DNA from: a virus
Taxonomy: Duplodnaviria > Caudoviricetes
Length of the DNA: 64,000 nucleotides
IMG/VR virus record: IMGVR_UViG_3300033075_001674
Coordinates: 32,001-96,000 of that record
Direction: 5' to 3' (one strand)
In this document: positions 3,023-63,189 of the stretch, one piece after another
Layout of the letters: every line of letters begins with the position of its first letter
How positions within the stretch are numbered: position 1 is the first letter of the stretch
Translations under genes and position numbers: made by a program
Notes under the pieces: model-generated
The model's database searches: none
What the model saw: only the letters and a program-made list of their open reading frames with translations
Told to the model about the DNA's origin: nothing

Positions 3023-3769
3023 ATGCCCCTGACCAACCCGTTCGCCTCCCCTGATGAAGTAAGGGATACCTTTGACCAGGAGTTGGCAGAGGCCCGCCGC
3101 TCCGGGAAGCTGCCGGAGTTCTTCACCTATGCGCTGCGCAAGGAGATCGTCCTGCGCTCCGAGGCGGTGCAGCTGCTCGTGACGAAGCTCGCCGACTGGC
3201 TCGTCCAGGAAACGGAGCTGCGCAATAAAGTGGCCGCCATCGAGGGCAGGCAAGAGGGGGCTGTGGCGCGCCTCGGTAGCCTCGTCTCGGCCCTGGAGGA
3301 GGCAGCGCGGGATCGGGAGGAGCTGCGCAAGGGTATCGAGCAGGTGGCTGCTCTACTCGGCAACTCCCAGACCTCCATCGCTGACTGGCACCGTCGTCAC
3401 GCCTCAGAGCACCGGGATATCCTGATGGCCATCCGCACCCAGTCCCTCCTCTCCCAGAAGAGGAACTCTGAGCTCGCGGGCGCTGTATCCGAGCTCTCCG
3501 GTCTAGTCGGAGAGGCTCTCGGAAGGCTGCACACTCAGGCAGGTGCCTCGACCAGCCAGGCCATGAAGCTGGACAAGCTGGAGAAGGACCACGAGGAGGC
3601 GAAAGAGGAGGTCACCGGCGTCACCCACAAGGTCGCCGTCATCGAGAAGGACGTGGCGAAGGTCCAGTACGCTCTGGCCAAGAAGCTCGGCAAGATCGGC
3701 GGCTACGGCGGGGCCGGGTACATCGTCTTCCGCATCATCGAGCTGATCATCACCTTCCTGGCAAAGTGA
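3023..3769 (+). CDS. coiled-coil protein with C-terminal membrane anchor (possible holin-like)
   Basis: Heptad-rich body ending in GGYGGAGYIVFRIIELIITFLAK; SD GAGGT. Confidence 0.6.
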   Translation: MPLTNPFASPDEVRDTFDQELAEARRSGKLPEFFTYALRKEIVLRSEAVQLLVTKLADWLVQETELRNKVAAIEGRQEGAVARLGSLVSALEEAARDREELRKGIEQVAALLGNSQTSIADWHRRHASEHRDILMAIRTQSLLSQKRNSELAGAVSELSGLVGEALGRLHTQAGASTSQAMKLDKLEKDHEEAKEEVTGVTHKVAVIEKDVAKVQYALAKKLGKIGGYGGAGYIVFRIIELIITFLAK

Positions 3770-5220
3770 TGAAGCTGGCCGACCTCCGCACCGATCCGCT
3801 GCCGCACCAGGAGCGGGTGAAGGAGCGCCTGAAGGGCGACCACCCCGGTCTTGTGGCGGTGCATGGCCTGGGGTCCGGCAAGACCCTCACGGCAATCAAC
3901 GTCCAGGACAGCCTGCGAGCCCCGGCGACTGTGGTCGTGCCCGCGGCGCTGAAGGAGAACTACCGGAAGGAGCAGAGGAAGCACCTGATCGGGGACCCCC
4001 CGCCCACGGAGCTGCAGACGATCCAGGCAGCTGCCTCGCGTAGGGGGGCCACGCCCAACGAGCTGCTGGTGGTGGATGAGGCGCACAAGCTCCGGGACCC
4101 GAACTCGGCTTCGTACCGGGCGATCCGCGACACGAAGCGAGACAAGACGCTGCTCCTGACCGCCTCCCCTTTCTACAACCACCCGCACGACCTCTCACCG
4201 CTGATCAACCTCGCGGCTCAGCAGGACCTGCTCCCCCTCGACCGGAAGAAGTTCGAGGACAAGTACATCGTCCACGAAAGGGCCCGACCGACCTTCACCC
4301 AGATGCTCCGGGGGGTGACCCCCGGAGAGATCCCCCATCTCAACCCGGCAACCGCGGGGGAGCTGCGGAAGATCTACAAGGACTGGACGGACTACCACCC
4401 CTCCTCCCAGGAGGGCTTCCCCCGGGTACGCCGGGAGGACGTGGAGGTCCTGATGTCCCCCGCGCAGAGGGACGTCTACAACACGACGCTCGACAAGGCG
4501 CCCTCCTGGGTGGCGGCCAAGGTGCGAAGCGGCATGCCTCCCTCCAAGCAGGAGATGTCGAACATGGCCGCCTTTCTGAGCGGCCCCCGGCAGGTCGGGG
4601 TCAGCACCGCTGCCTTCTCTCAGGGGGAGGTCCAGTCCCCGAAGATCGACAAGGCATTCGAGCGCATGCAGGCGCTGCTGTCGGGGAACCCCCGCGCCAA
4701 AGGGATCGTCTACTCGAACTACCTGGAGAGCGGGCTCTCCCCCTACAAGCGGAAGCTGGAGGCGGCGAAGATCCCCTTCGGGGAGTTCACCGGGGAGCTG
4801 AGCCCAAAGGAGCGGGACCAGATGGTCCGTGACTACAACGCCGGGAAGCTGCGCGCGTTGCTGCTGTCCAGCGCCGGGGGGGAAGGTCTGGACCTCAAGG
4901 GTACCCGGCTGGTCCAGATGCTTGAACCGCACTGGAACCAGGAGAAGCTCAAGCAGGTGGAGGGGCGGGCGATCCGCTACAAGAGCCACGAGGGCTTGCC
5001 CCCGGAGGAGCAGGAGGTCCTGGTCGAGCAGTACCTGTCGCACCTGGAGCCGAAAACGCGGGAGGGCCTGGCCGCCCTCCTCTTCGGCAAAGAGAGGAAG
5101 AACCGCGCCATCGGCGCGGACGAGTACCTCCACAACATGAGCCGCTCGAAAGGTCGGCTCATAGACGAGTTCCGAGCCCTGCTCCCGCAGCCACCCTTGA
5201 CGGGGCAGGCGGCTTCGTTA
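3769..5220 (+). CDS. SNF2-like superfamily 2 helicase
   Basis: HGLGSGKT, DEAH, TAS, GGEGLDL and QVEGRAIR motifs; TGATG coupling with the upstream gene. Ends at TTA 5218-5220 if TTA is stop, otherwise at TGA 5226. Confidence 0.88.
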
Positions 5221-5311
5221 CGATGAGGCACATGCACTCGTAGCTGCACGCAGCCAGAGATCCTCCGGTGTTTTTATTTCGTAGCCATCCACCTCTACGA
5301 CGGAGACACCG

Positions 5312-5611
5312 ATGAAGACTCTTCCAGAACAGATTGAGGAACACGAGACGTCGCAGCACGTCTTGAGACAGCTGGCGTTGGTACACACCGGACCTGCCCG
5401 GCACGCCTACAACATGCAGCGCCTCGCCCGCAAGGCTTCGGGGCGCGTTCTCTACCTCGCCCTCGCCCTCCTGCGAGGAGTCCCGTACAACGCGCTGGAG
5501 CGGACCTGTGCTGTGCCGCCCTCGGCCTCCGAGATTGCTCAGCTCGCCGGAGTGGGGGAGGAGGTGGCCCTTGGCTGGCTGGAACAAGCTGCGTGTCGTG
5601 ACGCTGCGTGA
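5312..5611 (+). CDS. phage hypothetical protein
   Basis: SD GGAG; segment LALALLRGVPYNALE resembles small phage proteins I recall beside Pth2-like genes (recall, not searched). Confidence 0.65.
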   Translation: MKTLPEQIEEHETSQHVLRQLALVHTGPARHAYNMQRLARKASGRVLYLALALLRGVPYNALERTCAVPPSASEIAQLAGVGEEVALGWLEQAACRDAA

Positions 5612-5969
5612 AGGGTAGGTCGGGTTCCGGGGAGCGCAGGCCATCCACGGAGTCCTGGCCTTCGCCGCAGAACACCCGAAGGAGGAGCAGGCGTGGCGCC
5701 TCTCCTCGAACACCGTCGTCTGGCTAGAGGCGGATGCCGACGAGCTGCAGCAGCTGCTCGACAGTGCCCGAGCCGCCAAAGTGAAGGTGAGCACCTTCCA
5801 CGAACCAGACCTTGCGAACCGACTGACCGTCGTGGCACTCAGCCCCTGCACTCGCGCGTTGAAGCTGACGCGAGGGGTGCCCCTGGCCGGGGTAGTTCAA
5901 GTGGCAGAACACGGGATTCTAAATCCCGACGTGAGGGTTCGAGTCCCTCCCCTGGCTCCGATGAAGTAG
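5571..5969 (+). CDS. Pth2-like peptidyl-tRNA hydrolase with in-frame TAG at 5616-5618 (readthrough candidate or pseudogene)
   Basis: SD GGAGGAGGT then TTG at 5571. Translation MAGWNKLRVVTLREG*VGFRGAQAIHG...NTVVWLE...FHEPDLANRLTVVAL...GVPLA matches the Pth2-type pattern K-x-V-V-x-R...AQxxH...EPD...T. The ORF track only calls it from 5781. Confidence 0.7.
5886..5957 (+). tRNA. tRNA with CUA anticodon (amber suppressor type), Gly-like body
   Basis: Full cloverleaf: acceptor GCCGGGG/CCCTGGC, D arm GTTC/GAAC, anticodon stem CGGGA/TCCCG with loop TT-CTA-AA (5919-5921), 4-nt variable loop, T arm GAGGG-TTCGAGT-CCCTC, discriminator T. CCA is not encoded (CCG follows). Confidence 0.92.
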
Positions 5970-5979
5970 CCTGCAGGGC

Positions 5980-8900
5980 ATGGCCGCTCAGGATATTGTC
6001 GCGTTTCTGCAAGAGCGCGTTCGGGTGTTCGACCAGACCATCGACGTGGAGGCAGGCAGCGACTTCTACCAGAAGGTTTTGCGACCCCTCGCTGGACGGA
6101 TCGGACCCGACCCCTTCACCACCGACACGCGAGCCTTCCTGTTGGAGGTCCTGGGGCGCGAGTACCCTGAGCTGGCGAGCGGCTCGCTCGACGCGTTGGC
6201 AGACGCTCTCGTCCTGCCCATCGAGTCGTTCCTGTCCCCGGTCTCGGCGGAGATCACCCGGATCGGAAGGGGTCTCTCCCTGAAGAACCCGGATCAGCTC
6301 AGCGTCGAGGAGGCGGAAGCCCTGGGAGCCAACCTCCTGGAGGAGCGCTCGGCCGGAGACTTCGCCAAGGGGGTTGTCCGGGTCTACTACCGCAACCCGC
6401 AGGGGCGCACCTTCACCAAGGCCCACGTCTTCAGCACCGAGGACCGACTCACGTTCATCCCCACCGAGGACCAGAGCATCTCGGCGGAGGAGATGCTGGT
6501 GAACCTGGACCCCGTCTCGGGCCTCTACTACGTCACCGTCTCGCTCATCGCGACAGCCCCAGGGGATCAGTACAACATCGACCCCAACTCGATCCGGAGT
6601 GTCCAGGGGTCGCAGGGCCACGAGAAGGTCACCAACCCGTACCGCTTCGTAAACGGTGTGGCGGAACAGACCGCCGAGGAGTTCGTGGACTCCCTGCCAG
6701 ATCGCGCGGGGGCCAAGGGGATGACCCAGCCCACCGGGATCGTCCGGGAGCTCAGCGACGCCTTCCCCATCACACGCATCGCGGTGGTGGGCCACGGCGA
6801 CCCTGAGATGGAGCGGGACATCGCTGAAGGGGGCTCCCTCGGGGAGACCCTGCTCTCGGGGTTCTCGGCAGCTACGACGATGGACTCCGGGGGCCTCCCC
6901 ACGACCACGCTCGTCACGCTTTCCGACGCGGAGGAGGACCTCACCACCCTCGGGAACGGATTGGTGCTCACCATCTCCCACCCGGACATCGAGGGACGCA
7001 CAAAGGACCTTGAAGTCGCACAGGCGCTGAGCAGCACGTCCCTGGAGCTGGCGGAGAGCGTGCTCTACCCGGGGATCTCCGGGGCGTACTGGACTCTCCG
7101 CCGGCGGGAGCTCGTGGTGAGCAACTCCCCGCTCCTGTCCGAGAGGTTCGCCTCGGCCCCCAACAAGGTCCACCTGGGGGGAGCGGTGGACGTTTACCTC
7201 CGGGGAGGGGAGCCCGACAGCACCTCGATGGTGATCGACGTGCTCGACGACGAGCAACCGGTCCTGGAGGGGCTGGACCTGTCAGGGTCCGGCAGCGAGG
7301 TCTACCTGCAGGACCTGGTGCTCTCCACCGACTACGTTTCGGGAGACGCGACCTACCGCTCGGTGCAGAAGATCTGGCAGGAGCGTTGGGCGCTGGAGAT
7401 CCTGGACGGGCCTGCAGCCGGTGTGTATGAGATCCTCGACGTCACCGAGGTCAGCGGCTCCCCCCTGCAGCTCACGCTTTACAGCGAGCTGCCAGCATCT
7501 GCGTCGGGGGCTCGTTGGAGGATCCTCGACGATCTCAACGTCAACCTCCGGGCCCCCAAGAAGATCCGCTACCGCGGCGGGGACATGGAGACCGTGCAGG
7601 GTCTATCGCAGGTGGCCACCTTCGGCCTCACGTCCTTCCTCGACGTCGGAGTGGAGTCGGGGGACACGCTGGAGATCCTCTCGGGGAGAGACAAGGGAAC
7701 CTACCAGGTCACGGCGCTCGCGGGCCCCGGGAGCTCCCGGTTGATCATCAACCAGCCCTTGACCTCCACGGCCTCCAGCGTCCCGTACGTCGTCTACAAA
7801 GAGAACAGCGCCTCCCCGCTGGAGCTACCGATCCTGCGGCTGACGGAGGTCTCTGTGCTGGACAGCTCCGGGCAGGCTCTCGGGGTCACGGTTCCCTACG
7901 GTCCTTGCCTTGGGGCGATCAGCCGCGGGATCACGAACCCGGCTCACGGGATCAAGCTCAGCGTACCGGATGCTCTGCTCGGAATCGTGTCGCAGCGCCT
8001 ACCTTCGGGGGCGAACGTCAGCGGTCGCACGATCTCGATCTTCTTCGAGGAGCTGGGCACCTACTACGTCACGTTCAGCGGGGGGAACCCCGTGAGCGTC
8101 GCGAACATCGTGTCGCAGATCAACGCTGCGGTGGGACGTAACGTGGCCACCAAGGTGGGGGCAGACCGTTTCGGCGTCTTCCCCGTGGGAGGCAAAGAGG
8201 CGCGCATCGTGGGACCCACCTCCTTCCTTCTCAACCCCCTGGATACCCTCTTCGGGGGCAGGTACGCCCTGAGCACCAAGAGCATCCGCAGTGCTTTCTT
8301 CACCAGCACGACCTTCGACGAGCTCAACCCCGCGCTGTCCCTCGACTACGACGTCGTGCAGTTTCAGGATGGGGCACAGGTAGGTGTGCACGGCATCGCC
8401 TCGGTCACGCGTAGGCCTGCTACGGTCCCTGTCACCGCGCTGTTCGATCCAAACGGCCTCATCTCCTCGGTGGAGGGGGGGTTCTTCCCCGAGGCGGATG
8501 TCCGACTCGACCTGGGCTCTCGCTCCATCGGCACCGTGCGCTGCTTCTTCCTGGATCCGGTGAGCGTCGAGTTCGAGTCGACTGCTCGGCTGACCCACAC
8601 CCTCGAGTCCGGCGAGACCTTGCAGTACAAGCCGGACCCCCAGTTCGAGTCCGTGGTCCTGCCCGCTGCACCTGGTGGGTCCAAGCCTCACGACGGGAAC
8701 TGCCTCGGCGGGGACAACGTGTTCAACACCTCGCTGGATCTGCGCGCCAAGGAGGTGCGCAAGGGCGACAAGCTGCGCATCGACTACATCCCTATCTACA
8801 CCTCCGCTCTCGCCGACGTAATCGTGGGGCTGGCGGGCAAGACCCTGCTCCTTTCCTACGGGGGCGAGAGCGCTCAGACCTTGACCTTCGTTCGCGACAG

Positions 8901-44901: not shown

Positions 44902-47900
44902 ATGGCAACGCTCGATCCCCACGAAGACTTCCAGGAAACGCTCAAGGCGGTCACCAGCGGTCTGCAGGAGGCGTTCCCCATCAAGGGTCGAACCTCCTCG
45001 CTACACCTCGTAAGCGTGCACGCAGGGCAGATGCCCGACCCGGAAGACATCGGTTCGCAGTACGCAACCCGGGTTGCGGGCAAGAGCTGGATGACCCCAA
45101 TCCAGGGTGTCATCGAGCTCCGAGACAACGAGACCGGTAAGGTCTTGATGACCCAGAAGACGCGCCTGATGTCGATCCCGTCTATGACCAAGCGCTTCTC
45201 CTTCATCTACAACGGCCAGGAGCACCAGTCCGCCAACCAGTGGCAGCTCAAGCCGGGGGTCTTCGCTCGTCGCCAGGACAACGGGGAGCTGGAGGCGCGG
45301 TTCAACGTGGTCAACCGTGCGGCCTTCAAGATGAAGTTGGACCCGCAGAGCCAGCTGTTCCACGTCGAGTACAAGAAGGCGAACCTGCCCGCGTACCCGC
45401 TTCTGCGGGCGATGGGGGTCTCTGACCAGCAGATGGAAGAGTCCTGGGGCAAGCAGGTCTTCGAGGCCAACAAGAAGGTCAAGCGGCAGGCCGGAGTGCT
45501 CGCGCAGTTCTACCGCACCAGCACCAACGGGAAAGCCCCCCCGGAGAGCGAGGAGGACCTGGCGGCACACCTGCGCCAGGTGATGAAGGAGTCGAAGGTG
45601 CGCCCCGAGGTGGTCAAGCAGACCCTGGCCCACGAGGTAGACCACGTGGACCACACGCTCATGCTGAACGCCGGCACGAAGCTGCTCGCCGTGCAGAACG
45701 GCGCCCCCGAGGATGACCGTGACTCGCTGATCTACAAGACGCTGCGCTCCACCGGGGACTTCCTGAAAGACCAGATCCAGGCCTCCAGCCGCAACCTGGC
45801 CATGAAGGTGCAGCGCCAGCTGAACAAGGGCGACCTCAAGGACATCCGCCACGCCTTCAAGCCAGGGCTCTACGACGACGCGGTTCGCAGGCTTTTCCAG
45901 AGCTCCCTGGTCAACCCCGCGAAGCAGATCAACCCGGTCGACATGATCGGGACGGCCATGCAGACGACCATCATGGGGCCCGGAGGAATCAAGAGCGACA
46001 TCCAGGTCACCGACGCGGCCAAGGAGATCAACCCCAGCCAGTTCGGCATGATCGACCCCCTCACCACCCCGGAGGGAGGGGCCACCGGCATCTCGCTGCG
46101 TCTACCCATCGGGGTGAAGCGGATCGGCGACCAGCCCCACATCCCCGTCTACAGCATCAAGCAGAAGAAGACGATCTACGTGAACCCCGCCCAGATGATG
46201 GCGGCCAAGAAGGTGTTCGCCGACGAGGTGGAGTACCGCAACGGGGTCCCCCACCCCCTGCGAGAGAAGGTGAAGGCGCTCGGCAAGGGCAACGAGCCCG
46301 AGGTCATCTCGTTCCACGAAGCGGACTACGTGATGAAGGACCCCAGCCAGGTCTACGGCACGACGGTCAACCTCGTCCCCTTCCTGCAGAACAACTCGGG
46401 TGGTCGTGTGTCGATGGCCAGCCGGCACATCGAGCAGAGCATCTCCCTGCGGGACAGGGACAAGCCCTTGGTGCGGGTGAACGCGCCCGGAGGAACACAC
46501 ACCTTCGAGGAGATGATCGGCCACCAGAGCGCCCACACCGCCCCAGTGGACGGAAGGGTCACCAGGGTCACTGCGGACGCGATCCACGTGGCGGATGCCT
46601 CCGGCAAGGAGCACAAGGTCCACCTCTACAACAACTATCCCGTCAACGACGCCAAGAGCGTCTTGCACTCCACCCCGCTTGTGAAGGTGGGAGATGCCGT
46701 CAAGAAGGGCGGCGTGGTGGCGGACAACAACTACACCCGAGATGGTGTGCTCGCGCTCGGTAAGAACCTCCGCACGGCATTCATGAGCTACCACGGCCTG
46801 AACTTCGAGGACGGTATCGTCATCACGGAGTCTGCGGCCAAGAAGCTGACCAGCAACCACCTCCACAAGGAGATGCTCCCTATCCCGGAGGTGAACAACC
46901 AGCTGATCTTCGACGCCAAGAAGTTTCAGGCTGCCCACCCGCTGGCGTTCTCCAAGGACCAGCTGGGGCACATCGGCGCGGATGGCGTCGCGAAGGTGGG
47001 GGCCAAGATCCGCCCCGGTGACCCGCTGGTGCTGGCGATGCAGCCGTACCAGCTCAAGGATCGAACCGGCATCGGAGCAATCCGCAAGAGCCTCACGAAC
47101 CAGCTGGTCGACAAGAGCCTGCGCTGGGAGTCGGATGTGCCGGGGGAAGTTGTATCTGTCCACCGGAACGATCAGGGCATCCACGTCCACGTGCGCACCG
47201 AGGAGCCTGTGCGCGTAGGCGACAAGCTCTCCCACCGCCACGGCGGCAAGGGCATCATCACCAGCATCCTCCCGGACAAGGACGCCCCTCGCAGCAAGGA
47301 CGGGAAGCCCGTGGACATCCTGTTCCAGCCGGGCGGTCTCGGCGGGCGCATGAATATCGGGCAGGTCCTCGAAGCACAGGCCGGGAAGATCGCCGAGAAG
47401 ACCGGCAAGCCGTACTTCGTCAAGAACTTCGACCCGAAGGTCCAGGATTGGACCCGTCACATGATGGGAGAGCTCAAGAAGCACGGGCTCTCGGACACCG
47501 AGGAGCTGTTCGACCCCAAGACCGGCATCTCCTACGGGCAGGTGATGACGGGCCCCATCCACTTCCTGAAGCTCGTCCACCAGATGGACAAGAAGGAGTC
47601 GATGCGGAGCGGCATGTCTCTGCCCAGGGTACAGAGCAAGGAGAAGTACGACCCCACGACCCTGCAGCCCGCCAGCGGCGGCGGGACCGGAGGGCAGTCC
47701 TGGGGGCAGCTCGGCATCTACGCTCTGCTGGCGCACGGGGCCAAGGGGATCCTGCGCGAGAGTATGACCTACAAGAGCGAGGGTGAGGACCCGGAGACCA
47801 ACGAGGCCAAGCGGTGGAGGTCCCAGCACAACGAGGTCTGGAACGCCATCCAGTCGGGGCAGCCCCTCCCTCCCCCGAAGCCCACCTTCTCGTTCCACCG

Positions 47901-50900
47901 CTTCACCGAGCTCATCAAGGGCGCGGGCATCAACGTGGACAAGAAGGGGGACGAGTTCGTGCTGTCCCCTCTCACCAACAGCCACATCCTCAAGATGAGC
48001 AAGGGGGAGATCTCCGACCCCACGGCCGTGGTGCACTCCAAGCGCGACGAGAACGGGGTCTTCAAGACCATCAAGGGCGGGCTCTTCGACGACAAGATCA
48101 CCGGAGGACACGGCGGCACTGGCTGGTCCCACGTGAAGCTGCCGGAGCCCATGCCCAACCCGATCTTCGAGGAGCCCATCAAGAAGATCCTCGGCATCAC
48201 GGAGACCACCTACCAGGCCCTGGTGGAGGGCAAGCAGGGGGTCAACCCGCTGACAGGGAAGATCGGCCCCTACGAGCGCGGGTTCCTCGTAGGGGGCTCG
48301 GCGTTCAAGAAGCTCCTCGGGAAGATCGACGTCTCAAAGGAGCTGGCCGCCACGAAGAAGGCCCTCGACTCGGCCAAGCCCTCCCAGGTCAACCCGCTCT
48401 ACAAGAAAGCCCGGTACCTCCAGGGGCTGGAGAAGACAGGGATGCGCCCCGACGAGGCGTACGTGCTCGACTACCTGCCCATCGTGCCCCCCAAGCTCCG
48501 CCCTCTGTCCAACCTGGACGACGGAGCGCTGCACTACGACGGTATCAACGGCATGTACAACCAGCTGGGGCAGCTCACGAACGCGATGAACCACCCATCG
48601 CAGAAGATGCTCCCCGATCAGTACAAGGCCGAGGGGCGCAGGGCTCTCTACGACGGGGTGTCCGCTCTCTTCGGTACAGCTGCTCTACCCGAGGGAGCCA
48701 AGGACAAGGGCATCCTCCACATGATCGCCGGCAGCCAGCCGAAGCGCGGTATCGCCCAGAAGGGCCTACTCTCCCGCAGGCAGGATGCCTCGGCCCGCGC
48801 CACGATCATCCCTGAGCCGAAGCTCGGGCTCGACGAGATCGGGCTACCCAAGGAGATGGCCATGACCATCCTCCGCCCACAGCTCGTGCGTCAGCTTGTG
48901 GTGCAGGGGAGCGCCAAGGATGAGCTGGCAGCGCAGAACCTCCTGGCGGAGGCCCACAAGGGCAAGGAGGACCCCTCCATCCAGTCCGCCCTCAACAACC
49001 TGGCGAACAACGAGCTCGTCATCTCGAAGCGTGACCCTGCGCTGTGGAAGTACAGCGTGCAGGCGTTTCGTCCGCGCATCGTTGAGGGTAAGGCGATCCG
49101 GATTCACCCGCTTGTGACCGGGGGATTCAATGCCGACTTCGACGGCGACAGCGCCAAAGGGCTGGTGCATGTTGAAGTTTCTACGGAAACCGGGAACAAG
49201 GAGGAGATGCCACACCTCGGATCCCTTCCTGTTCATGGGCTCATCAACCTTCGTGACTTTCCCCGCCAGCAACTCCTTCGGGATGACGGGCGCGTAGCGG
49301 TTTACAGCGTGCCGGAGGGGGTGGTGGTGCCCTCCCACCTCAACGGGGTCGGCATCGTGCGGATGCCAGTCACCGAGTTTTCCATCCACCGTGACTGCCC
49401 TCTCTGGAGGGTGACCAGCCGTGCGGGCCGGTTGCTGGAGGTAAGCGAAGACCACTCCCTGGCCACCCTCGACATGAACACCCTGGACGTCGTGGAGACC
49501 AAGGCGTCGGGAAGCGAGGGCAAGGTCTTCCCTGTCATGCGCGCCCTCGCCCACTCTCACGGCAAGGACGCGTGGGACACCTCCTGCTTCGAGGGTGTCT
49601 CGGAGAGGGGCTACCCTCTTCCCCAGTTCCCTCTCACCAAAGCATCCGGTTGGTTCCTGGGGGCGATGGTTGGGGATGGGTGGGTGAGCGACACATCCAA
49701 GTACACAAACGGCACAGCCATGCAGATCAGTTTGGCTTACGGGGCGAGGGGGGTTGAGGTAGCAGCCCGGTGGGGGTCCTTCCTGGATAACCTCGTCCCC
49801 GAGATTGCCAAACGATCCTACCGAAACGAGCACGAGTTCGAGGGGAAGCCCGCTCTCTCCTTCCGCGACACTGTGACCCACTCCGCTCTCGGGCGTCTCC
49901 TCCAGGAGCAGCTCGGGCACGGGGCCCGGAACAAGCACCTGCCCCTCGACTTCCTGGAGTGGAACGAGCAGGCACGTCGGGGCCTGCTCGCTGGTCTGCT
50001 GGACACGGATGGCTCGGTGACCTGGGTGCACGCGGCGACCAAGAACAAGCCTCAGTTCCAGGCCGCCTACCACACCACCTCCGCACAGCTCGCCATCGAG
50101 GTCGTATTGCTCTGCCAGTCCCTTGGCATCGTCGCCAGCTACACCGAGTACGCGAAGCGGGACGGGCTCGCCTACAACATCTTCCTGTCCACCTCCACGA
50201 TGCAGGAGGCCACCTGGCTGGACCTGGCCCATCCGGAAAAGAAGGAGGCCCTGGAGCGGCTCTGGGGGAGCGAGCCTGTGATCTCGGGCAGGGGGGACTG
50301 GGTGCCCATGCCCCCGGCTGTCCGGAGCATTCTGCTCACGGAGCTCCGCAAGAAGGGGGCTGCCCGCAAGGAGAAGACCGAGGAGGGCAAGCGCGCTTTC
50401 AGCCTCTACGTGGTACTGAAGAAAGAGGAGCCCATCATCACGCGGGAGACCTTTGCCCTGCTCACCGAGATGCTCGGGGATGCGGTGTGCAGCGAAGGGC
50501 TGATGTCCTCGTGGTACGCGCTCTGCACCAACCCCACGCTCTCCTGGGATGTGGTGGAGACGGCGGAGGACACGGGGGAGCTCCACGAGATGTACGACCT
50601 CACCGTTCCGGACTCCTACACCTTCACGATGGCCAATGGCGCCGTGGTCTGGGACACCATGAGTGTGCAAGCCGTGCTCTCCGACGAGGCAAAGCGCGAC
50701 GCGGCTCGCATGCTCCCCAGCAAGAACATCTTCAGCGAGAGCACCGGAGGGGTGGCCTACCTGCCCTCGATGGAGTCTCTCCTGGGACTCCACCGTCTGT
50801 CCCTTGTCGGGCAGTCGAAGGGCGCCTCTTTTAGCCACGACAAGGACGCCATCGCGGCCCTGCACCAGAAGAAGGTGAGCCTCGATGAGCAGATCAAGGT

Positions 50901-53900
50901 CGGGGGTGTAACCACTACCCCCGGGCGAGTCCTGCTCGCTTCGGCGGTGCCGGACGAGATGCGGAACAAGATCCTCACCGACTTCTCCCTGGAGCTGAAC
51001 AAGAAGGGCGTGAACGCCGTCTTCACCGAGATCGGGAAGAACCACGCCCCGAGGTTCGCTGCGCTGGCCGACAAGCTGAAGGATCTGGGGTACGACACCT
51101 CGACGGGCATCATCAACACCCCCCTGGCCCCCCAGGGCAAGGTCGGGGTGGGCACCCACTCCTTCAAGCTGTCGGACTTCATCGCCGACACCGCCTCTCG
51201 CGACCCTCACCTGCACGCCGCGGACAAGGAGGTGGAGGAGCTGAAGAAGAAAGGTCTTCGACCCGAGGAGCTGAAGCGCCAGATGGCCGAGGCATACCTG
51301 CGGGCGGACGTGGCCATCCAGAAGCAGCACGCAGCCTCCGGGAAGATGCAGGACAACGCGCTAGGCAAGATGACCCGGGCGGGCATGAAGCCCAGCAAGG
51401 ACCAGTACAAGCAGATGGTCCTGGCTCCGATGGTGATGACCAACTCCAAGGGAGAGCTCATCCCCGTACCCGTGCGCCGCAGCTACGGGGAGGGTGTGGA
51501 CCAGATGGGCTACACCGTGCAGCAGGAGGGCGCGCGCAGCGGCACCATCAAGAAGGTGCAGGAGGTACAGGAGCCCGGGTACATGACCAAGCTGCTGCAG
51601 AACACCTCGATGCACACCCTCATCGACACCCACGACTGCGGCACCCAGAAGGGCCTCCTGGTGGGAGTGGGGGACTACGACATCATGGATCGCCACCTGG
51701 CCACCCCCCTCAAGCTCAAGGGGCTGGACCTGCCCGGGGGGACTCTGCTCAGCAAGGACATCGTGGATCGAATCCGCAAGGTCGACCCGTCCGCGAAGCT
51801 GGTGGTTCGCTCCCCGCTTCACTGCCACTCTGAGAAGGGTGTCTGCCAGAAGTGCTACGGGCTAGACGCCAACGGCAAGCACCTGACGGTGGGATCCAAC
51901 GTGGGTGTTCTGAGCGCACACACGCTTGGAGAGCGCGCGGTGCAGCTCACGCTGAAGGCGTTCCACTGCCTCCACGAGCACTCCCTTGTGCTCGTTCGGC
52001 ACAAGGGCAGGGTCTACCACACCACGCTCCGCGCTGTGTTCGAGGGTTCTCCCGGGACGGAGCCCGAGGTCCGGATCCCCCAGGATCTCGAGGTGTGGGG
52101 GCCGGAGGGGTGGGTTCGCGTGTTGAGCGCGAGCCGCCACCTGCAAGAGCCTGGGACCCAGATGGTCTTTGCGCGTACACGCTCCGGCTTCGGCCTCCTC
52201 AGCCAGGACAACCACCCCCACATGCTCGCAGAGAACCTGGCGGTCTGCGAGCGGTGCGGCACCTACCCCAAGCGAAGCAACGGAGGAAAGCAGCACTACT
52301 GCCGGCGCTGCGGGCGAACCTGGCAGGGCGAGCTCCCGGAGCCAGAAGACTTCCAGATGGTCATGCCGTCCGAGCTCTCGGAGAAGTCCCACACCGCCAA
52401 GGTGAGCTGGGGGCCGAGCCCCACCGAGCAGAACCCACCCCTGCGCTCAGGTTGGCTCGCGGGCATGTTCTGCGCAGAAGGGTACATTCACGCGCAGAAC
52501 CGGGAGCAGGGTTCGTATGTGATCGGCTTCGGTATCTCCCAGAACCAGGGCACCCCGGTTTACACCAAGCTCGGAGCGTGCCTGGCCCAGGAGTTCCCGG
52601 AGGCCAGGTTGGGGGCTCGACCCAGGGCCTTCCAGGTCTACGGCCGGGAGCGAGGTCTTTTCTTCGAGAAGACGTTCGGGAGGTACTCCCGGAACAAGGG
52701 GCTGCCGGAGGGGTGGAGCGGTTTGCCTGTGGATTGGTTGGCGGACTTCGTCTCCGGCGTCTTCGATGGGGACGGCACCCTGGTCTCCACCAAGGACAGC
52801 GCCTGGAAAGTTGGAAGGATCGACACCACCAGCTACTTGCTGGCGCAACAACTCCACCACATCTTGCGCTCCAGAGGGGTCCACTCCCGAGTGCTCCTCT
52901 CACCGTGGCGCAAGGCATCTCTGCACCAGGGGTTCGCCGTCACCTTCCCCATCACGGCAGAAGCGAAAGAGATGCTCTCCTCCGCGCTGAAGTTGGCGAA
53001 CGTGGAGGCTCGTCCCCACGGAAACGAGGAGCGGTTCGGAGAAGTGGTGGATTACGTGCGCCCCGTGCGGTTCGGGGCGCCTCCCTGGGTGTACGACCTT
53101 GAGACGGAGACCAGCACGCTCTGCGTCAACAACGTGTGGACCCACAACTCCGGCGGAGTCGCTTCGGCAGGCGGAGGCGCCATCGGGTCTTTCGGTCGCC
53201 TGGAGCAGCTGACCTACCTCCCCGACCAGATCCCCAACTCCGCGGTGCACGCGAACGTGTCGGGCAAGATCACCAAGATCGAGCCAACCCCCACGGGAAC
53301 GAACATCTGGGTGGGGCAGCACATGCACTTCGTGGGCAAGGACAGCAAGGGCAACCCCCTGCACGAGAAGCAGGAGGGGGTGTTCCACACCAAGCCCTGG
53401 AGCCCCCCGCAGGTGGGCAAGGAGGTGAAGCCCGGAGACTTCCTCTCGGACCCCAACCGCACCCACCTCAACCCCCACCGCTTCTTCGAGGCCACCAAGA
53501 GCATGGACAGGGTGCAAGAGAAGCTCGCCGAGGAAATGCACGGCCTTTACGCAGACGAAGGCGTGCGCAAGCGTGCTGTCGAGGTGGTGGTGCGCAGCAT
53601 GGGCAACCTGACCCAGATCGAGCACCCGGGCGGCAGCCCCGACTTCCTGCGGGGGCAGACCTACTCCCGTTCCGCGGTGGAGCAACTCAACAAGGAGCTC
53701 AAGGCCAAGGGTCAGCCCCTGGTGGTCCACAAGCCGGTCTTGCGCGGGGTGAACCTGCTGCCCCTCGACATGACCACCGACTGGATGGCCCGCCTCAACC
53801 ACCAGAAGCTGCGCGGCACCATGATGGAGGGCGCTGCGCAGGGCTGGGCCAGCGACATCCACGGCCGACACCCCGTCCCGGGGCTCATGTACGGAGCCGA

Positions 53901-53955
53901 GTTCGGGCGCAAGAGCATGGATCCTCGGAAGGCAGGCAAGACCAACTTCTACTAA
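44902..53955 (+). CDS. rpoBC: phage multisubunit-type RNA polymerase, fused beta and beta' subunits, with two inteins
   Basis: Beta motifs GPGG, TPEG, NFED, GDKLSHRHGGKG, RMNIGQ and LKLVH; beta' motifs LPIVPPKLRP, NADFDGD, GYMTKLL, QLTLKAFH and C-terminal Zn site. About 2121 aa after intein removal. Confidence 0.95.
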   Translation: MATLDPHEDFQETLKAVTSGLQEAFPIKGRTSSLHLVSVHAGQMPDPEDIGSQYATRVAGKSWMTPIQGVIELRDNETGKVLMTQKTRLMSIPSMTKRFSFIYNGQEHQSANQWQLKPGVFARRQDNGELEARFNVVNRAAFKMKLDPQSQLFHVEYKKANLPAYPLLRAMGVSDQQMEESWGKQVFEANKKVKRQAGVLAQFYRTSTNGKAPPESEEDLAAHLRQVMKESKVRPEVVKQTLAHEVDHVDHTLMLNAGTKLLAVQNGAPEDDRDSLIYKTLRSTGDFLKDQIQASSRNLAMKVQRQLNKGDLKDIRHAFKPGLYDDAVRRLFQSSLVNPAKQINPVDMIGTAMQTTIMGPGGIKSDIQVTDAAKEINPSQFGMIDPLTTPEGGATGISLRLPIGVKRIGDQPHIPVYSIKQKKTIYVNPAQMMAAKKVFADEVEYRNGVPHPLREKVKALGKGNEPEVISFHEADYVMKDPSQVYGTTVNLVPFLQNNSGGRVSMASRHIEQSISLRDRDKPLVRVNAPGGTHTFEEMIGHQSAHTAPVDGRVTRVTADAIHVADASGKEHKVHLYNNYPVNDAKSVLHSTPLVKVGDAVKKGGVVADNNYTRDGVLALGKNLRTAFMSYHGLNFEDGIVITESAAKKLTSNHLHKEMLPIPEVNNQLIFDAKKFQAAHPLAFSKDQLGHIGADGVAKVGAKIRPGDPLVLAMQPYQLKDRTGIGAIRKSLTNQLVDKSLRWESDVPGEVVSVHRNDQGIHVHVRTEEPVRVGDKLSHRHGGKGIITSILPDKDAPRSKDGKPVDILFQPGGLGGRMNIGQVLEAQAGKIAEKTGKPYFVKNFDPKVQDWTRHMMGELKKHGLSDTEELFDPKTGISYGQVMTGPIHFLKLVHQMDKKESMRSGMSLPRVQSKEKYDPTTLQPASGGGTGGQSWGQLGIYALLAHGAKGILRESMTYKSEGEDPETNEAKRWRSQHNEVWNAIQSGQPLPPPKPTFSFHRFTELIKGAGINVDKKGDEFVLSPLTNSHILKMSKGEISDPTAVVHSKRDENGVFKTIKGGLFDDKITGGHGGTGWSHVKLPEPMPNPIFEEPIKKILGITETTYQALVEGKQGVNPLTGKIGPYERGFLVGGSAFKKLLGKIDVSKELAATKKALDSAKPSQVNPLYKKARYLQGLEKTGMRPDEAYVLDYLPIVPPKLRPLSNLDDGALHYDGINGMYNQLGQLTNAMNHPSQKMLPDQYKAEGRRALYDGVSALFGTAALPEGAKDKGILHMIAGSQPKRGIAQKGLLSRRQDASARATIIPEPKLGLDEIGLPKEMAMTILRPQLVRQLVVQGSAKDELAAQNLLAEAHKGKEDPSIQSALNNLANNELVISKRDPALWKYSVQAFRPRIVEGKAIRIHPLVTGGFNADFDGDSAKGLVHVEVSTETGNKEEMPHLGSLPVHGLINLRDFPRQQLLRDDGRVAVYSVPEGVVVPSHLNGVGIVRMPVTEFSIHRDCPLWRVTSRAGRLLEVSEDHSLATLDMNTLDVVETKASGSEGKVFPVMRALAHSHGKDAWDTSCFEGVSERGYPLPQFPLTKASGWFLGAMVGDGWVSDTSKYTNGTAMQISLAYGARGVEVAARWGSFLDNLVPEIAKRSYRNEHEFEGKPALSFRDTVTHSALGRLLQEQLGHGARNKHLPLDFLEWNEQARRGLLAGLLDTDGSVTWVHAATKNKPQFQAAYHTTSAQLAIEVVLLCQSLGIVASYTEYAKRDGLAYNIFLSTSTMQEATWLDLAHPEKKEALERLWGSEPVISGRGDWVPMPPAVRSILLTELRKKGAARKEKTEEGKRAFSLYVVLKKEEPIITRETFALLTEMLGDAVCSEGLMSSWYALCTNPTLSWDVVETAEDTGELHEMYDLTVPDSYTFTMANGAVVWDTMSVQAVLSDEAKRDAARMLPSKNIFSESTGGVAYLPSMESLLGLHRLSLVGQSKGASFSHDKDAIAALHQKKVSLDEQIKVGGVTTTPGRVLLASAVPDEMRNKILTDFSLELNKKGVNAVFTEIGKNHAPRFAALADKLKDLGYDTSTGIINTPLAPQGKVGVGTHSFKLSDFIADTASRDPHLHAADKEVEELKKKGLRPEELKRQMAEAYLRADVAIQKQHAASGKMQDNALGKMTRAGMKPSKDQYKQMVLAPMVMTNSKGELIPVPVRRSYGEGVDQMGYTVQQEGARSGTIKKVQEVQEPGYMTKLLQNTSMHTLIDTHDCGTQKGLLVGVGDYDIMDRHLATPLKLKGLDLPGGTLLSKDIVDRIRKVDPSAKLVVRSPLHCHSEKGVCQKCYGLDANGKHLTVGSNVGVLSAHTLGERAVQLTLKAFHCLHEHSLVLVRHKGRVYHTTLRAVFEGSPGTEPEVRIPQDLEVWGPEGWVRVLSASRHLQEPGTQMVFARTRSGFGLLSQDNHPHMLAENLAVCERCGTYPKRSNGGKQHYCRRCGRTWQGELPEPEDFQMVMPSELSEKSHTAKVSWGPSPTEQNPPLRSGWLAGMFCAEGYIHAQNREQGSYVIGFGISQNQGTPVYTKLGACLAQEFPEARLGARPRAFQVYGRERGLFFEKTFGRYSRNKGLPEGWSGLPVDWLADFVSGVFDGDGTLVSTKDSAWKVGRIDTTSYLLAQQLHHILRSRGVHSRVLLSPWRKASLHQGFAVTFPITAEAKEMLSSALKLANVEARPHGNEERFGEVVDYVRPVRFGAPPWVYDLETETSTLCVNNVWTHNSGGVASAGGGAIGSFGRLEQLTYLPDQIPNSAVHANVSGKITKIEPTPTGTNIWVGQHMHFVGKDSKGNPLHEKQEGVFHTKPWSPPQVGKEVKPGDFLSDPNRTHLNPHRFFEATKSMDRVQEKLAEEMHGLYADEGVRKRAVEVVVRSMGNLTQIEHPGGSPDFLRGQTYSRSAVEQLNKELKAKGQPLVVHKPVLRGVNLLPLDMTTDWMARLNHQKLRGTMMEGAAQGWASDIHGRHPVPGLMYGAEFGRKSMDPRKAGKTNFY
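49150..50655 (+). mobile_element. intein 1 (LAGLIDADG), atypical Ser...Trp-Asp/Thr junctions
   Basis: NADFDGD|SAKG...VSEDH...LGAMVGDG...LAGLLDTDG...MYDLTV...ANGAVVWD|TMSV; 502 aa. Confidence 0.88.
51967..53148 (+). mobile_element. intein 2 (LAGLIDADG plus zinc ribbon) in the trigger loop
   Basis: KAFH|CLHE...QDNHP...LAGMFCAEG...SGVFDGDG...VYDLET...THN|SGG; 394 aa. Confidence 0.92.
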
Positions 53956-59821: not shown

Positions 59822-60086
59822 GGGCTATCTTACGATTCCCCACCCTTGCCACCCTCACCTCCACGATCCCCGCCTCCTCCAGCAACGCCTGGGCGAAAGC
59901 GACCGCCTGTTCCTGCGCTCCCCGGGGAAGCAGCAGGGTCAGCTCTCGCCGTACGGGCAGGTCCTCGTCCTGACTCCGATCACCCTCCTCTCGAACCCGA
60001 TCGCCCCAGGTGTCCCTGAACACGACCGTCGCCCCTCCCCACAGGAGCTTGCGCACCACCTCACCCCAGGAGCTCTGATCCACCAT
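59523..60086 (-). CDS. possible hypothetical protein filling the 59821-60085 gap
   Basis: The first ~90 codons look coding (GC third positions), but the frame runs about 300 nt antisense into the upstream gene. Confidence 0.35.
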   Translation of the reverse strand: MVDQSSWGEVVRKLLWGGATVVFRDTWGDRVREEGDRSQDEDLPVRRELTLLLPRGAQEQAVAFAQALLEEAGIVEVRVARVGNRKIALRGPCWPPSPSQPGASAGGGEPGSHSAGGGHPPTPPPPSSPRSPASCCSEPGRPSGSTQPPRTEGPRRSGSGASPPSGRHAASPPARSEADWRALLAGW

Positions 60087-63000
60087 GATTACCGGGAAGT
60101 TTGACCAGCGCTGGTACAGCGGCAAGGAGCAGGAGCAGCGGGTCTCCTCCCAGATCGAACGCTACGATCCCGACGAGGAGGACCAGCTCGAAGAAAGCTG
60201 GAAGCACGACTCCTTCTGGGAGCAAGAGGGCGAATCCCTGGGAAATCTGCCCAGTATACCCTCCTTCAAGATGAGCGATTTCATCACAAGGATCCTGCGC
60301 ATCCCGAATAAGAAGGGCGCGTACGCTCCTTTTTCCTTTGAGGGTCGGGCTCATTTGCCAGCCATCTACGATACCCCGGCTCGCTTCATCCTTCTCTGTT
60401 GCGCCAGGCAGGTGGAGAAGTGCGTTAGCTTGCGCACGCCCATTCTCACAACGAATGGGTTGCTCCGCGCCTCGGAGATTTCCGAGGGGGATGTGGTCCT
60501 AAGCTACGACACCCGTACCTCAAAGCTCGTATGGAAGCCGGTGCTATGGAAGAGCCCTACGGTACGCAAGCCCGCTCTTCGGATAACCCTCCAAGGAGGA
60601 GCGCAGGTGGTTTGTGGGGAGGATCATCCGTTCAGGGGGTACCGTCAGTGGATACTCGCCAAGGACCTGGTGAAGGGCAGTCGGGTAGAAGTGGCGAACG
60701 AAACCCCGGAGATCCCGGGGTCTATGGAAGTACCTGTCGAAGACGTGGTTCGAGCCGGAGTGTTCGACGCGCTTCGGCTAATGGGGGTGGCTGCGCACGC
60801 TGAACCCCGGCCCTTCCTGTCGTGTACTGTCCGGCACCGTCATCAGATAGTCCCGCTTCTCGAAGACGTCCTCTACCAGGTGGCCGAACCGTTCGAGGGA
60901 AAGTACCGGGTCCCGAAGGGCAGGTGGACTGTCTGGCTGCGGGGTAAACTCGGGGCCGTCCTCGCTGAGCGGAAAGGCAAGGGCTTTTCCAGCAACCTGA
61001 GCTGCAAGGCAGGGGTCCGCTCCGCCCGGGTGGCCGTGAAGGCGATGTGGTTGATCGCGGGCGTGCTCTCGGAGCGGGCCAACCGATCTGGTTCCCTGGA
61101 GATGCACATCGACGTCGGGAACGAGGAGGAGGCCGAGGAGGTGCGGGCGATCCACCTCATGGCCGGGATCGAGCTCAGCACAGTGAAGCACCAGCACGGC
61201 CCCGGGGGAGCGGGAGGGGTGTGGTGGCGGATGCGCCCCATCGGACGGGGGAAGCGGAAGCTGCTCTCCCTCCTGCCCAGGGAGCTGGTGAGCGACTTCC
61301 CGGAAGCCGACCCCTACTGGGAGGACGACACCCTCCCCCCGCAGTGGGCTTCGAGCATGCAGCGGGTCTACTCGGAGCGGGTCCCGGAACGGCGAGACCT
61401 GGAACACGGCTGGTACGGTAAGAAAAGACCCGGCCAGAGAGGGCGGCAGGGACGCAAGGGGTCGCGCTCCCCCTCGCTCTCCCTCTCCAGGGTCCGAGGG
61501 GAGGAGGCGATCGAGACCCTCCTGCAGGTGGAGGGCGCACACCCCGAGGAGCTGTACCTGCTCAAGCGGGAGCTGGAGGCCCCGACTCGGTGGAGCCGGG
61601 TCATGTCGGTGGAGCCCCTTGGAGAGATGGAGATGGTGGACTTCGAGGTGGAGGGGACGCACACCTTCGTCGCCAACGGGGCCATCACCCACAACAGCAC
61701 GTACCTCGGCAACCGACTGCTCGTCAGCTCGGTCGCTTACCCGGGCTACAAGAGCCTCTACGTCAGCCCGAGCTCCATCCAGACCAAGACTTTTAGCTCC
61801 GACCGTCTGCGCAACCCCATCGAGACCTCGCCCTTCCTGCAGGACTTCGCCAGGGCCGGAGGCGTGCAGAACGTGCTGGAGATGGAGTTCGGCAACTCCA
61901 GCAAGATCACGATGCGGTCTGCGTACCTAAGCGCAGACCGGTGCCGCGGTATCCCGGCGTACCTGCTCTGCATGGACGAGTTCCAGGACCTGCTGCCAGA
62001 GCACATCCCGGTCATCGAGCCCTGTACCTCCCACGCCCCTCGGGATTACCGCGTCCACCTCTACGCCGGCACCCCGAAGAGCTTCGACAACAACATGGAG
62101 TTCTACAGGTCGGGGTTCTCCGCCGACCGGCCGATGTCGACGATGGGCGAGTGGATGGTGCCCTGCGACCACTGCGGGGTGAAGGGGCCTGGCGGTTGGA
62201 GGTTCTGGCAGAGCCTCGGGGTGAAGAACATCCAGAAGAAAGGTCTGTCCTGCTCTCAGTGCGGGGGAAGCCTGGACCCCCAGCACGCAGACGCTCGCTG
62301 GGTACATCAACAGGCAGACGGGCGGTTCGAGAGCTACCGCATCCCGCAGCTGATGGTGCCCTGGCGCCCCTGGGACGAGCTCTACACCGACTACATCAAC
62401 TTCGATAACGCCAAGTTCCACAACGAGGTGCTCGGGCTGTCGATGGACAACCACCAGCGCCCGCTCAGCATGTCGGAGATGCGCGACTGCTGCGACCCCC
62501 GGCTGCCGATGGCGCTCAAGGACGCCTTCCTGCCCGAGAAGTGGGGTGACCACATCTTCATGGGCGTCGACTGGGGCAGCGGCACGCTGAGCTACACCGT
62601 CATGACGCTCGCTACCTACGTCGGCGGCATCTTCACGATCTTCTACATGCAGCGCTTCACGGGAAGGCTGCTGGACGTGCAGGAGCAGATCGACCACGTG
62701 CTCCACACGCTGCGCAGGTTCAAGGTCGTCGTCTGCGGCACCGACTTCGGTTACGGGGCCCAGAACAACGACCACCTCATCCGCTGGTACGGCCGTGACA
62801 GGATCGCGGTCTATCAGCACCTCGGACGCGTCACCAAGAAGATCGCCTTCGACCCCAGGATGCAGCGCTTCAAGGTGTTCCGCTCGGCCGTGATGGCCGA
62901 CTTCATCAACATGATCAAGCGCAAGAACATCCGCTTTCCTCGCTGGGAGGACATGCGGGAGCCCTTCGCCAAGGACTTCTGCAACATCACCTCGGAGCTG

Positions 63001-63189
63001 AGCGAGACGCAGCAGATGATGATCTACAGCCACCGCCCGGACCGCCCGGATGACAGCTTCCACTCCGCCCTCTACTGCCTCATGGCAAGCACGCTGGTTG
63101 TGCAGCGCCCCGACATCTTCTCGCCGCTGCACAACAGCTACCGGCAGGGCCCGGTGCGAGAACTGGGGGGGCCCGTAGATCAGGGCTAA
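60085..63189 (+). CDS. terL: terminase large subunit (GpA-like) with intein
   Basis: PFSFEGR, RQVEK|ST (Walker A), DEFQD, GTP, CxxC...CxxC, GVDWG and PDDSFH motifs. Confidence 0.9.
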   Translation: MITGKFDQRWYSGKEQEQRVSSQIERYDPDEEDQLEESWKHDSFWEQEGESLGNLPSIPSFKMSDFITRILRIPNKKGAYAPFSFEGRAHLPAIYDTPARFILLCCARQVEKCVSLRTPILTTNGLLRASEISEGDVVLSYDTRTSKLVWKPVLWKSPTVRKPALRITLQGGAQVVCGEDHPFRGYRQWILAKDLVKGSRVEVANETPEIPGSMEVPVEDVVRAGVFDALRLMGVAAHAEPRPFLSCTVRHRHQIVPLLEDVLYQVAEPFEGKYRVPKGRWTVWLRGKLGAVLAERKGKGFSSNLSCKAGVRSARVAVKAMWLIAGVLSERANRSGSLEMHIDVGNEEEAEEVRAIHLMAGIELSTVKHQHGPGGAGGVWWRMRPIGRGKRKLLSLLPRELVSDFPEADPYWEDDTLPPQWASSMQRVYSERVPERRDLEHGWYGKKRPGQRGRQGRKGSRSPSLSLSRVRGEEAIETLLQVEGAHPEELYLLKRELEAPTRWSRVMSVEPLGEMEMVDFEVEGTHTFVANGAITHNSTYLGNRLLVSSVAYPGYKSLYVSPSSIQTKTFSSDRLRNPIETSPFLQDFARAGGVQNVLEMEFGNSSKITMRSAYLSADRCRGIPAYLLCMDEFQDLLPEHIPVIEPCTSHAPRDYRVHLYAGTPKSFDNNMEFYRSGFSADRPMSTMGEWMVPCDHCGVKGPGGWRFWQSLGVKNIQKKGLSCSQCGGSLDPQHADARWVHQQADGRFESYRIPQLMVPWRPWDELYTDYINFDNAKFHNEVLGLSMDNHQRPLSMSEMRDCCDPRLPMALKDAFLPEKWGDHIFMGVDWGSGTLSYTVMTLATYVGGIFTIFYMQRFTGRLLDVQEQIDHVLHTLRRFKVVVCGTDFGYGAQNNDHLIRWYGRDRIAVYQHLGRVTKKIAFDPRMQRFKVFRSAVMADFINMIKRKNIRFPRWEDMREPFAKDFCNITSELSETQQMMIYSHRPDRPDDSFHSALYCLMASTLVVQRPDIFSPLHNSYRQGPVRELGGPVDQG
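60421..61695 (+). mobile_element. intein in terminase Walker A, endonuclease apparently degenerate
   Basis: RQVEK|CVS...GEDHPF...MVDFEVEGTHTFVANGAITHN|STY; 425 aa. Confidence 0.92.

Follow-up and report, generated by a model that had tools for sequence, protein, structure and literature searches.

Does a phage gene that is interrupted by an amber codon, and that carries an amber-reading tRNA in its own 3' end, represent a gene in decay or a gene that is translated only while its tRNA is active? The question is raised by a locus in the window, i.e. the stretch of 64,000 nucleotides analysed here (positions 32,001 to 96,000 of the IMG/VR virus record IMGVR_UViG_3300033075_001674, Caudoviricetes). 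An earlier note on this DNA had proposed a self-contained cassette in which a hydrolase resembling peptidyl-tRNA hydrolase 2 (Pth2) is made only when the suppressor tRNA is active. As judged from sequence comparisons, the locus looks like a natural translational switch and not like a broken gene, and it is probably a self-gated cassette, the proteins of which would be made only while its tRNA overrides UAG.

Results

Layout of the locus

The features on which the argument depends are the following.

5197..5224, plus strand: promoter-like site (TTGACG, 16 nt, TACGAT), a consensus match only
5223..5315, plus strand: leader ORF, the ATG of which (5223) overlaps the stop codon of the helicase gene; ATG 5232 is an alternative start
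5256..5322, plus strand: predicted RNA hairpin, in which the codons for D-P-P-V-F-L pair with the Shine-Dalgarno sequence (SD) GGAG at 5302-5305 and the AUG at 5312-5314
5312..5611, plus strand: gene for a 99-aa all-helical protein, the last 41 nt of which also belong to the Pth2-like gene
5571..5969, plus strand: Pth2-fold gene with a TTG start, a domain end near 5888 and a 27-aa tail that runs through the tRNA gene
5616-5618, plus strand: in-frame TAG, codon 16 of the Pth2-like gene, followed by G
5886-5959, plus strand: tRNA(CUA), UAG-reading, with its anticodon CTA at 5919-5921 (ARAGORN and Rfam)
5967-5969, plus strand: second TAG, 8 nt past the end of the tRNA, at which the Pth2-like frame terminates

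The Pth2-like gene is built as first described, with a strong SD (GGAGG, 5560-5564) 6 nt upstream of TTG 5571, the TAG at codon 16, and a frame that runs on through the tRNA to a second TAG. The residues K-L-R-V-V before the internal TAG align with the first beta strand of relatives, and a search for a functional start beyond it found no in-frame ATG, GTG or TTG between 5619 and 5780, that is, from the TAG to codon 71; the gene thus cannot simply begin after the TAG. In the structure the TAG falls where the loop after strand 1 meets helix 1, in the alignment column that varies most across the family in this region (P, S, A, D, T, K, E, N), so that any residue inserted at codon 16 should be tolerated.

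The tRNA is well supported by Rfam (RF00005, 64.2 bits against a gathering score of 29) and by ARAGORN, which assigns CTA to anticodon position 34. At minimum energy it folds into a clean cloverleaf; the variable arm is short, base 73 is U and CCA is not encoded. It is the sole tRNA of the window, in which neither ARAGORN nor Rfam found a second one. A BLAST comparison with phage tRNAs gave mixed matches (Met, Asn, Trp, His) that are uninformative on its identity, and the discriminator base varies between relatives, being U73 in the window, G73 in locus L002, which holds the closest relative, and A73 in L003. The tRNA does begin where the protein domain ends, as had been claimed: its first triplet, GCC at 5886-5888, is the codon for the Ala of the family's C-terminal L-P-L-A motif. 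It follows from this geometry, which L002 has in common with the window, that excision of the tRNA would leave a Pth2-like mRNA with no stop codon.

Fold and family of the product

The suspected likeness to Pth2 is real, being weak for the single sequence and strong by family profile and predicted structure. Pfam PF01981 matches the window protein alone at 21.7 bits (E 2.4e-4), below the cut-off of 23, and precomputed PF01981 matches exist for some relatives. An exhaustive profile search gathered 1355 clusters of Pth2-like relatives, and a family profile built from 79 sequences matches solved Pth2 structures, 2zv3 at E 9.3e-12 and then 1rzw, 1wn2, 1q7s and 1xty. The AlphaFold model of the product (pLDDT 96.5, pTM 0.89) has Pth2 structures as its best Foldseek matches (2zv3, 1q7s, 3erj, 1wn2, 1xty; most at TM 0.76-0.82), and at E <= 0.001 Pth2 entries make up 12 of 14 among the matches listed (TM 0.6-0.8). 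Profile and model together make a firm case that the product would adopt the Pth2 alpha/beta fold.

Activity is a separate matter. The catalytic Lys and Asp of archaeal Pth2 are K18 and D86 in the Sulfolobus enzyme. The Asp aligns with the near-invariant E78-P79-D80 of the phage family; the Lys position is variable in that family, and is F or R in the window. Since the catalytic Lys is not kept, a Pth2-like activity of the phage proteins is uncertain.

Signs of selection on the interrupted gene

The window gene aligns without gaps, at 65% identity, with its closest relative, P0001 on L002. The downstream motifs noticed earlier are intact, and all invariant or near-invariant family residues are kept (Q23, H26, W42, N47, F76, E78, P79, D80, T86, P92). 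The dN/dS ratio against L002, the calculation of which had been proposed, is about 0.3 for the part after the TAG and about 0.4 for the part before it. By these comparisons the gene is not decayed. The codon-16 TAG itself is known in the window phage only: the closest relative has GCT at the corresponding codon, and L003, L005, L022 and L029 have no internal TAG, so that the conservation looked for in relatives is absent.

This absence is what the strongest rival explanation builds on, namely that the TAG is a recent nonsense mutation which has either created a young pseudogene or is neutral by virtue of the neighbouring suppressor, with no selection for gating. A single base change turns many of the codons common in high-GC genomes into TAG, other high-GC relatives lack the TAG as well, and the frame's lack of a stop ahead of the tRNA might count as another defect. 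The intact relative L002 nevertheless lacks that stop too, and a gene free of indels, with every conserved residue in place and dN/dS at about 0.3, does not resemble a pseudogene. We regard a recent nonsense mutation as unlikely, also in view of the genome-wide, comparative and leader data below.

That the TAG stems from faulty assembly or sequencing, or from a minority variant of the metagenome, is far less probable still. The TAG is seen in one single metagenomic contig, but all three of its bases differ from the GCT of the relative, amid many other substitutions, the same operon holds a second and conserved TAG in its leader, and the phenomenon recurs across many independent assemblies.

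In-frame stop codons elsewhere in the genome

The contig (108 kb, IMG/VR, 65% G+C, about 59% complete) was scanned with a codon model trained on its own long genes, every stop codon being examined. Gene boundaries excepted, the TAG of the Pth2-like gene is the sole internal TAG in the 108 kb with a coding signal on both sides. On the sequence available we conclude that the window phage is not generally recoded, since no other credible internal TAG occurs in these 108 kb of an about 59%-complete contig. In-frame TAGs in a sizeable share of genes, which would characterize a code-15-like phage, are not found here; they occur in the Pth2-like gene and the leader only. That the one credible internal TAG lies in the very gene that adjoins the matching tRNA also speaks against a chance nonsense mutation.

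The same gene-specific pattern is seen in other phages. In LR756501 (50 kb examined) and G002 (all 88.6 kb) no internal TAG is credible except that of the Pth2-like gene. In G001 (80 kb) the TAG of the Pth2-like gene is the sole flagged TAG once gene boundaries, tRNAs read as protein and weak, ambiguous matches are set aside, and in G003 (all 116.7 kb) one gene boundary was flagged and nothing more. Across these five phage genomes or large regions, the window phage included, there is no further credible internal TAG outside the Pth2-like cassette.

Could the phage nonetheless be partially recoded in a code-15-like manner, with the Pth2-like gene as one of several affected genes and the others hidden in the unseen part of the genome or in read-through fusions? 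The incompleteness of the contig leaves room for this, TAG is a minority stop in the genome, and two genes of the contig that terminate in TAG, at genome positions 29023 and 31405 (window -2977 and -595; L131 273-4559), each continue in frame into the next ORF with no further stop in between, so that read-through at both would give one protein of 1428 aa, its InPase domain spanning residues 1054-1160. Each of these TAGs has an ATG 7 to 13 codons beyond it, however, and they may be ordinary gene ends; the idea that TAG 31405 splits a domain was ruled out because the InPase domain, the sole Pfam domain of the fusion, ends before it. With no second internal TAG of two-sided coding signal in the contig, and with the gene-specific pattern repeated in four other phage genomes or large regions, partial recoding appears highly improbable. 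One consideration counts against gating: about five credible genes of the contig terminate in TAG, and a strong suppressor would extend them.

As a side observation, the window also holds a 3017-aa ORF (44902-53955) with RNA polymerase beta-like (Rpb2_6) and beta-prime-like (Rpb1) domains and a LAGLIDADG domain in between, and a large terminase (60085-63189) that contains an intein-splicing domain.

The tRNA and the amber codon in relatives

The earlier note had asked whether related phages keep the linkage of gene and tRNA, and they do. L002 has the same synteny, with a tRNA(CUA) that overlaps the 3' end of the gene and a frame that stops at a TAG inside the tRNA. In L003-L005 (about 50% identity) the gene ends in TAG and the tRNA(CUA) begins 12 nt later, and in L029 an antisense tRNA(CUA) lies across the 3' end of the gene (L029 2516-2604). 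The mycobacteriophage ScoobyDoobyDoo has a tRNA(CUA) 180 nt downstream of a gene annotated 'peptidyl tRNA hydrolase'. Records of huge phages show ochre (UUA) or amber tRNAs near the Pth2-like gene, and one pair of IMG/VR viral contigs an opal (UCA) tRNA. A survey of 80 further IMG/VR loci showed a tRNA within 2.5 kb at 72 of them and a suppressor tRNA, often the sole tRNA, at 47. Three proteins that are near in the profile search (P0005, P0007, P0008) have no tRNA within 2 kb of their genes.

In-frame TAGs recur together with this linkage. They were found in 47 of 88 non-redundant Pth2-like loci, mostly at codon 3 to 6 and with no start codon after them; most low-GC relatives have an ATG, one to four codons, the TAG and then the conserved K-L strand, with no intervening start. 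A tRNA(CUA) lies within 2.5 kb of 36 of the 47 gated genes (11 are without), compared with 10 of the TAG-less genes (31 without), an association with Fisher p 1.5e-6 over the 88 loci if shared ancestry is ignored. TAG-less relatives have a sense codon at the gate position. In several Pth2-like genes a second TAG lies further into the frame, at a codon that differs between lineages, and independent in-frame TAGs at other codons occur in the Pth2-like genes of at least four other lineages, which speaks against a recent nonsense mutation in the window. In 50 of 51 cases a purine follows the gate TAG; a purine after UAG is the context of best amber suppression. The claim that the hydrolase is made only with an active suppressor is thus supported in one part, the recurrent TAGs that accompany tRNA(CUA), and lacks support in another, the codon-16 TAG not being conserved.

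Some candidate regularities were dropped. The terminal stop of the gene is the codon of the neighbouring suppressor in the window, L002, L003/L005 and L022, but this fails in ScoobyDoobyDoo (TAA), L007 (TGA with a UUA tRNA), L009 (TAG with a UCA tRNA), L017 and L026. P0112 (on L027) was taken for a simple start miscall until a TAG gate was seen in L027, and the N-terminally short P0123, considered as a hidden TAG case, overlaps a tRNA instead. Further searches for close relatives were negative: none was found in IMG/VR with the Pth2-like protein and the downstream 1307-aa protein as queries, a DNA search with 5200-6100 against the phage collection gave no match, and 185,579 species genomes contained no related prophage.

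Further observations concern loci of other designs. Downstream of the TAG-less Pth2-like genes of L085, L093, L100, L101 and L108, which start M-A-T-I-K with no stop, tRNAs lie at about 0.7-1.8 kb and stand in for tRNA(CUA) in this higher-GC subgroup. ARAGORN calls them Glu(UUC) or gives odd loops; several apparently have an 8-nt anticodon loop, and all have UUUCAA, which contains the opal-reading triplet UCA. Genes resembling tRNAs, with 6- or 8-nt anticodon loops, neighbour the genes of L013, L016, L018 and L020. In L018 an in-frame TGA (630-640) sits immediately ahead of the conserved K-L strand, and no start codon follows the TGA. The 5' end of the gene in L028 must begin within a tRNA-Ile(AAT) (128-230). 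In L022 a phage tmRNA gene follows the tRNA(CUA) by 38 nt (3220-3688), and the adjoining Pth2-like gene ends in TAG. The low-GC relative L077 has a TAA at the N-terminal gate position (about 2490) with no tRNA within 2.5 kb. In ScoobyDoobyDoo (L001 2938-2946) an in-frame GTG-TAG directly precedes the annotated GTG start of gp79 and may be a remnant or variant of an early gate.

The upstream leader and the 99-aa gene

The TAG that the clade does share lies one gene upstream, in the leader, outside the coordinates of the earlier note, and it is present in relatives that have no codon-16 TAG. The leader peptide reads M-H-S (or M-R-H-M-H-S from ATG 5223), the TAG at 5241-5243, then L-H-A-A-R-D-P-P, with R-D-P-P encoded at 5256-5267, and further codons up to a TGA (5313-5315) that overlaps the ATG (5312) of the 99-aa gene as ATGA. 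The same design, a few codons, a TAG and R-[G/A/D]-P-P 4-9 codons later, is also found in L002, L003/L004, L029, L126 and L128, and the leader is kept in six lineages of the high-GC clade. A conserved TAG in the leader of the same operon is a further point against the recent nonsense mutation. A TTA codon lies at 5274-5276, just past the arrest-like motif.

The window leader has RDPP as its motif; L002 has RAPP, and RGPP is the form in L003, L029, L126 and L128. Arrest by RAPP and RGPP has been demonstrated by experiment and hardly depends on the upstream context, and in ApdA and ApdP the RDPP variant is partly permissive (PMC12992588). The window thus has the weakest arrest motif of the three. 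Its hairpin is predicted at -32.9 kcal/mol with a modest z-score of -3.5; the equivalent in L002 has a 16-bp arm, -42.3 kcal/mol and z -6.9, and the hairpins of L003 and L029 are of the same plan but have weak z-scores. One promoter-like site was found upstream against 0.1 expected in shuffles, and because its second hexamer ends 7 nt before ATG 5232 the transcript may be leaderless.

The 99-aa gene is kept ahead of the Pth2-like gene at seven loci, with homologues in L002, L003, L029, L126, L127 and L129. The AlphaFold model of the protein (pLDDT 79.5) has no clear structural match; Pfam and PHROGs gave no significant family, and Atlas and Foldseek only weak HTH-like resemblances. Specific to the window are the codon-16 gate, the physical overlap of gene and tRNA seen also in the layout of L002, and the combination of leader gate, internal gate and TAG terminator.

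Discussion

A model of the switch

We propose that 5223-5969 would act as one operon, comprising a UAG-gated leader, the 99-aa helical protein, the Pth2-fold protein and the overlapping tRNA(CUA). With no active suppressor, ribosomes would halt at the leader UAG, leaving the hairpin to mask the SD and AUG of the 99-aa gene, and those initiating on the Pth2-like gene would halt at codon 16. Production and charging of the tRNA would let a ribosome read the leader UAG and arrive at R-D-P-P, where its pausing could melt the hairpin and allow translation of the downstream genes. The Pth2-like protein would require a second read-through, at codon 16, and because two read-throughs are needed its amount is proposed to rise steeply with suppressor activity. 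Most likely the putative enzyme would hydrolyse ester-linked tRNA (peptidyl- or N-blocked aminoacyl-tRNA) that accumulates when stop codons are overridden. The earlier speculation that it releases chains dropped off at UUA received no support from any of our analyses.

A more elaborate idea, which we consider improbable, is that the self-gated cassette works as a homeostat for stop-codon override through three possible couplings. First, ribosomes that read through codon 16 could block folding and RNase P processing of the tRNA, a negative feedback. Secondly, excision of the tRNA could leave a Pth2-like mRNA that ends at the last conserved codons with no stop, and the enzyme could then, by analogy with ArfA, avoid being tagged by tmRNA only if read-through products keep the rescue system saturated. 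Thirdly, the Pth2-like protein may free the short peptidyl-tRNA arrested at R-D-P-P of the leader and so reset the switch.

Many phages of standard code carry 'orphan' suppressor tRNAs with no known target, and the cassette would supply one, namely the tRNA's own neighbouring genes. If our reading is true, the locus is a natural circuit of small size: through stop codons, a tRNA turns on an enzyme of translation quality control, and in the high-GC clade a known kind of ribosome-arrest motif has been re-used downstream of a stop. It would also show how a phage manages the cost of overriding the stop signals of its host, may represent a first step towards full stop-codon recoding, and would provide a ready-made orthogonal part for amber-controlled expression. 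Cultured relatives for direct study exist among the Myrna-like mycobacteriophages.

Comparison with known systems

A full-text literature search found no published description of a PTH2 with a suppressor tRNA or of this switch. The type of cassette is thus apparently undescribed, PTH2-like genes near phage tRNAs and recoded phages each being already known.

The window protein resembles archaeal and eukaryotic Pth2 (PF01981; 2zv3, 1wn2, 1xty and 1q7s, Bit1) in its fold, at TM about 0.8, and in the Q..H helix motif common to both. It differs in having only about 20% identity and a Gly-Lys loop that is two residues shorter and without the catalytic Lys.

Circuits of a related logic are found among bacterial termination and rescue factors. 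RF2, encoded by prfB, is autoregulated via an in-frame UGA, and ArfA is the product of a non-stop mRNA. As in the cassette, the synthesis of a termination or rescue factor depends on the handling of a stop codon or of a missing one; the difference is that the prfB and ArfA circuits sense the factor's own activity or the capacity of tmRNA, whereas the cassette would sense the co-encoded suppressor tRNA.

In recoded phages with their own suppressor tRNAs, on average 26-71% of genes have in-frame stops, and it has been proposed that stop-bearing genes, translatable only after the tRNA appears, form a timing switch; the 'code change' genes themselves use the standard code, and a hydrolase goes unmentioned (Borges et al., 10.1101/2021.08.26.457843). 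The window is similar in that a phage tRNA would override a stop codon of the host. It differs in that the remaining genome is in standard code, the in-frame TAGs being confined to the leader and the Pth2-like gene of the cassette.

The tRNA arrays of cluster C mycobacteriophages carry PTH2-like genes, as reported by Morgado and Vicente in 2018 with no mention of suppressor tRNAs or in-frame stops (PMC5966550). The same protein family is thus found beside phage tRNAs in both, and gp79 of ScoobyDoobyDoo, 35% identical to the window protein, is followed by a tRNA(CUA). In the window, unlike in those arrays, the tRNA(CUA) is the sole tRNA and overlaps the gene.

Finally, the leader has its counterparts in the arrest peptides with RAPP or RGPP motifs (ApdA, ApdP, SecM; PMC10951233, PMC12992588), where R-[A/G/D]-P-P is likewise encoded in a small ORF upstream and the arrest region base-pairs, in a hairpin, with the SD of the following gene. 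The known arrest peptides monitor protein export and are released by a pull on the nascent chain (PMC10951233, PMC12992588). The window leader differs from them in that its nascent chain at the motif would have about 11 to 14 residues and no signal peptide, and in that the motif is predicted to be reached only past read-through of a UAG.
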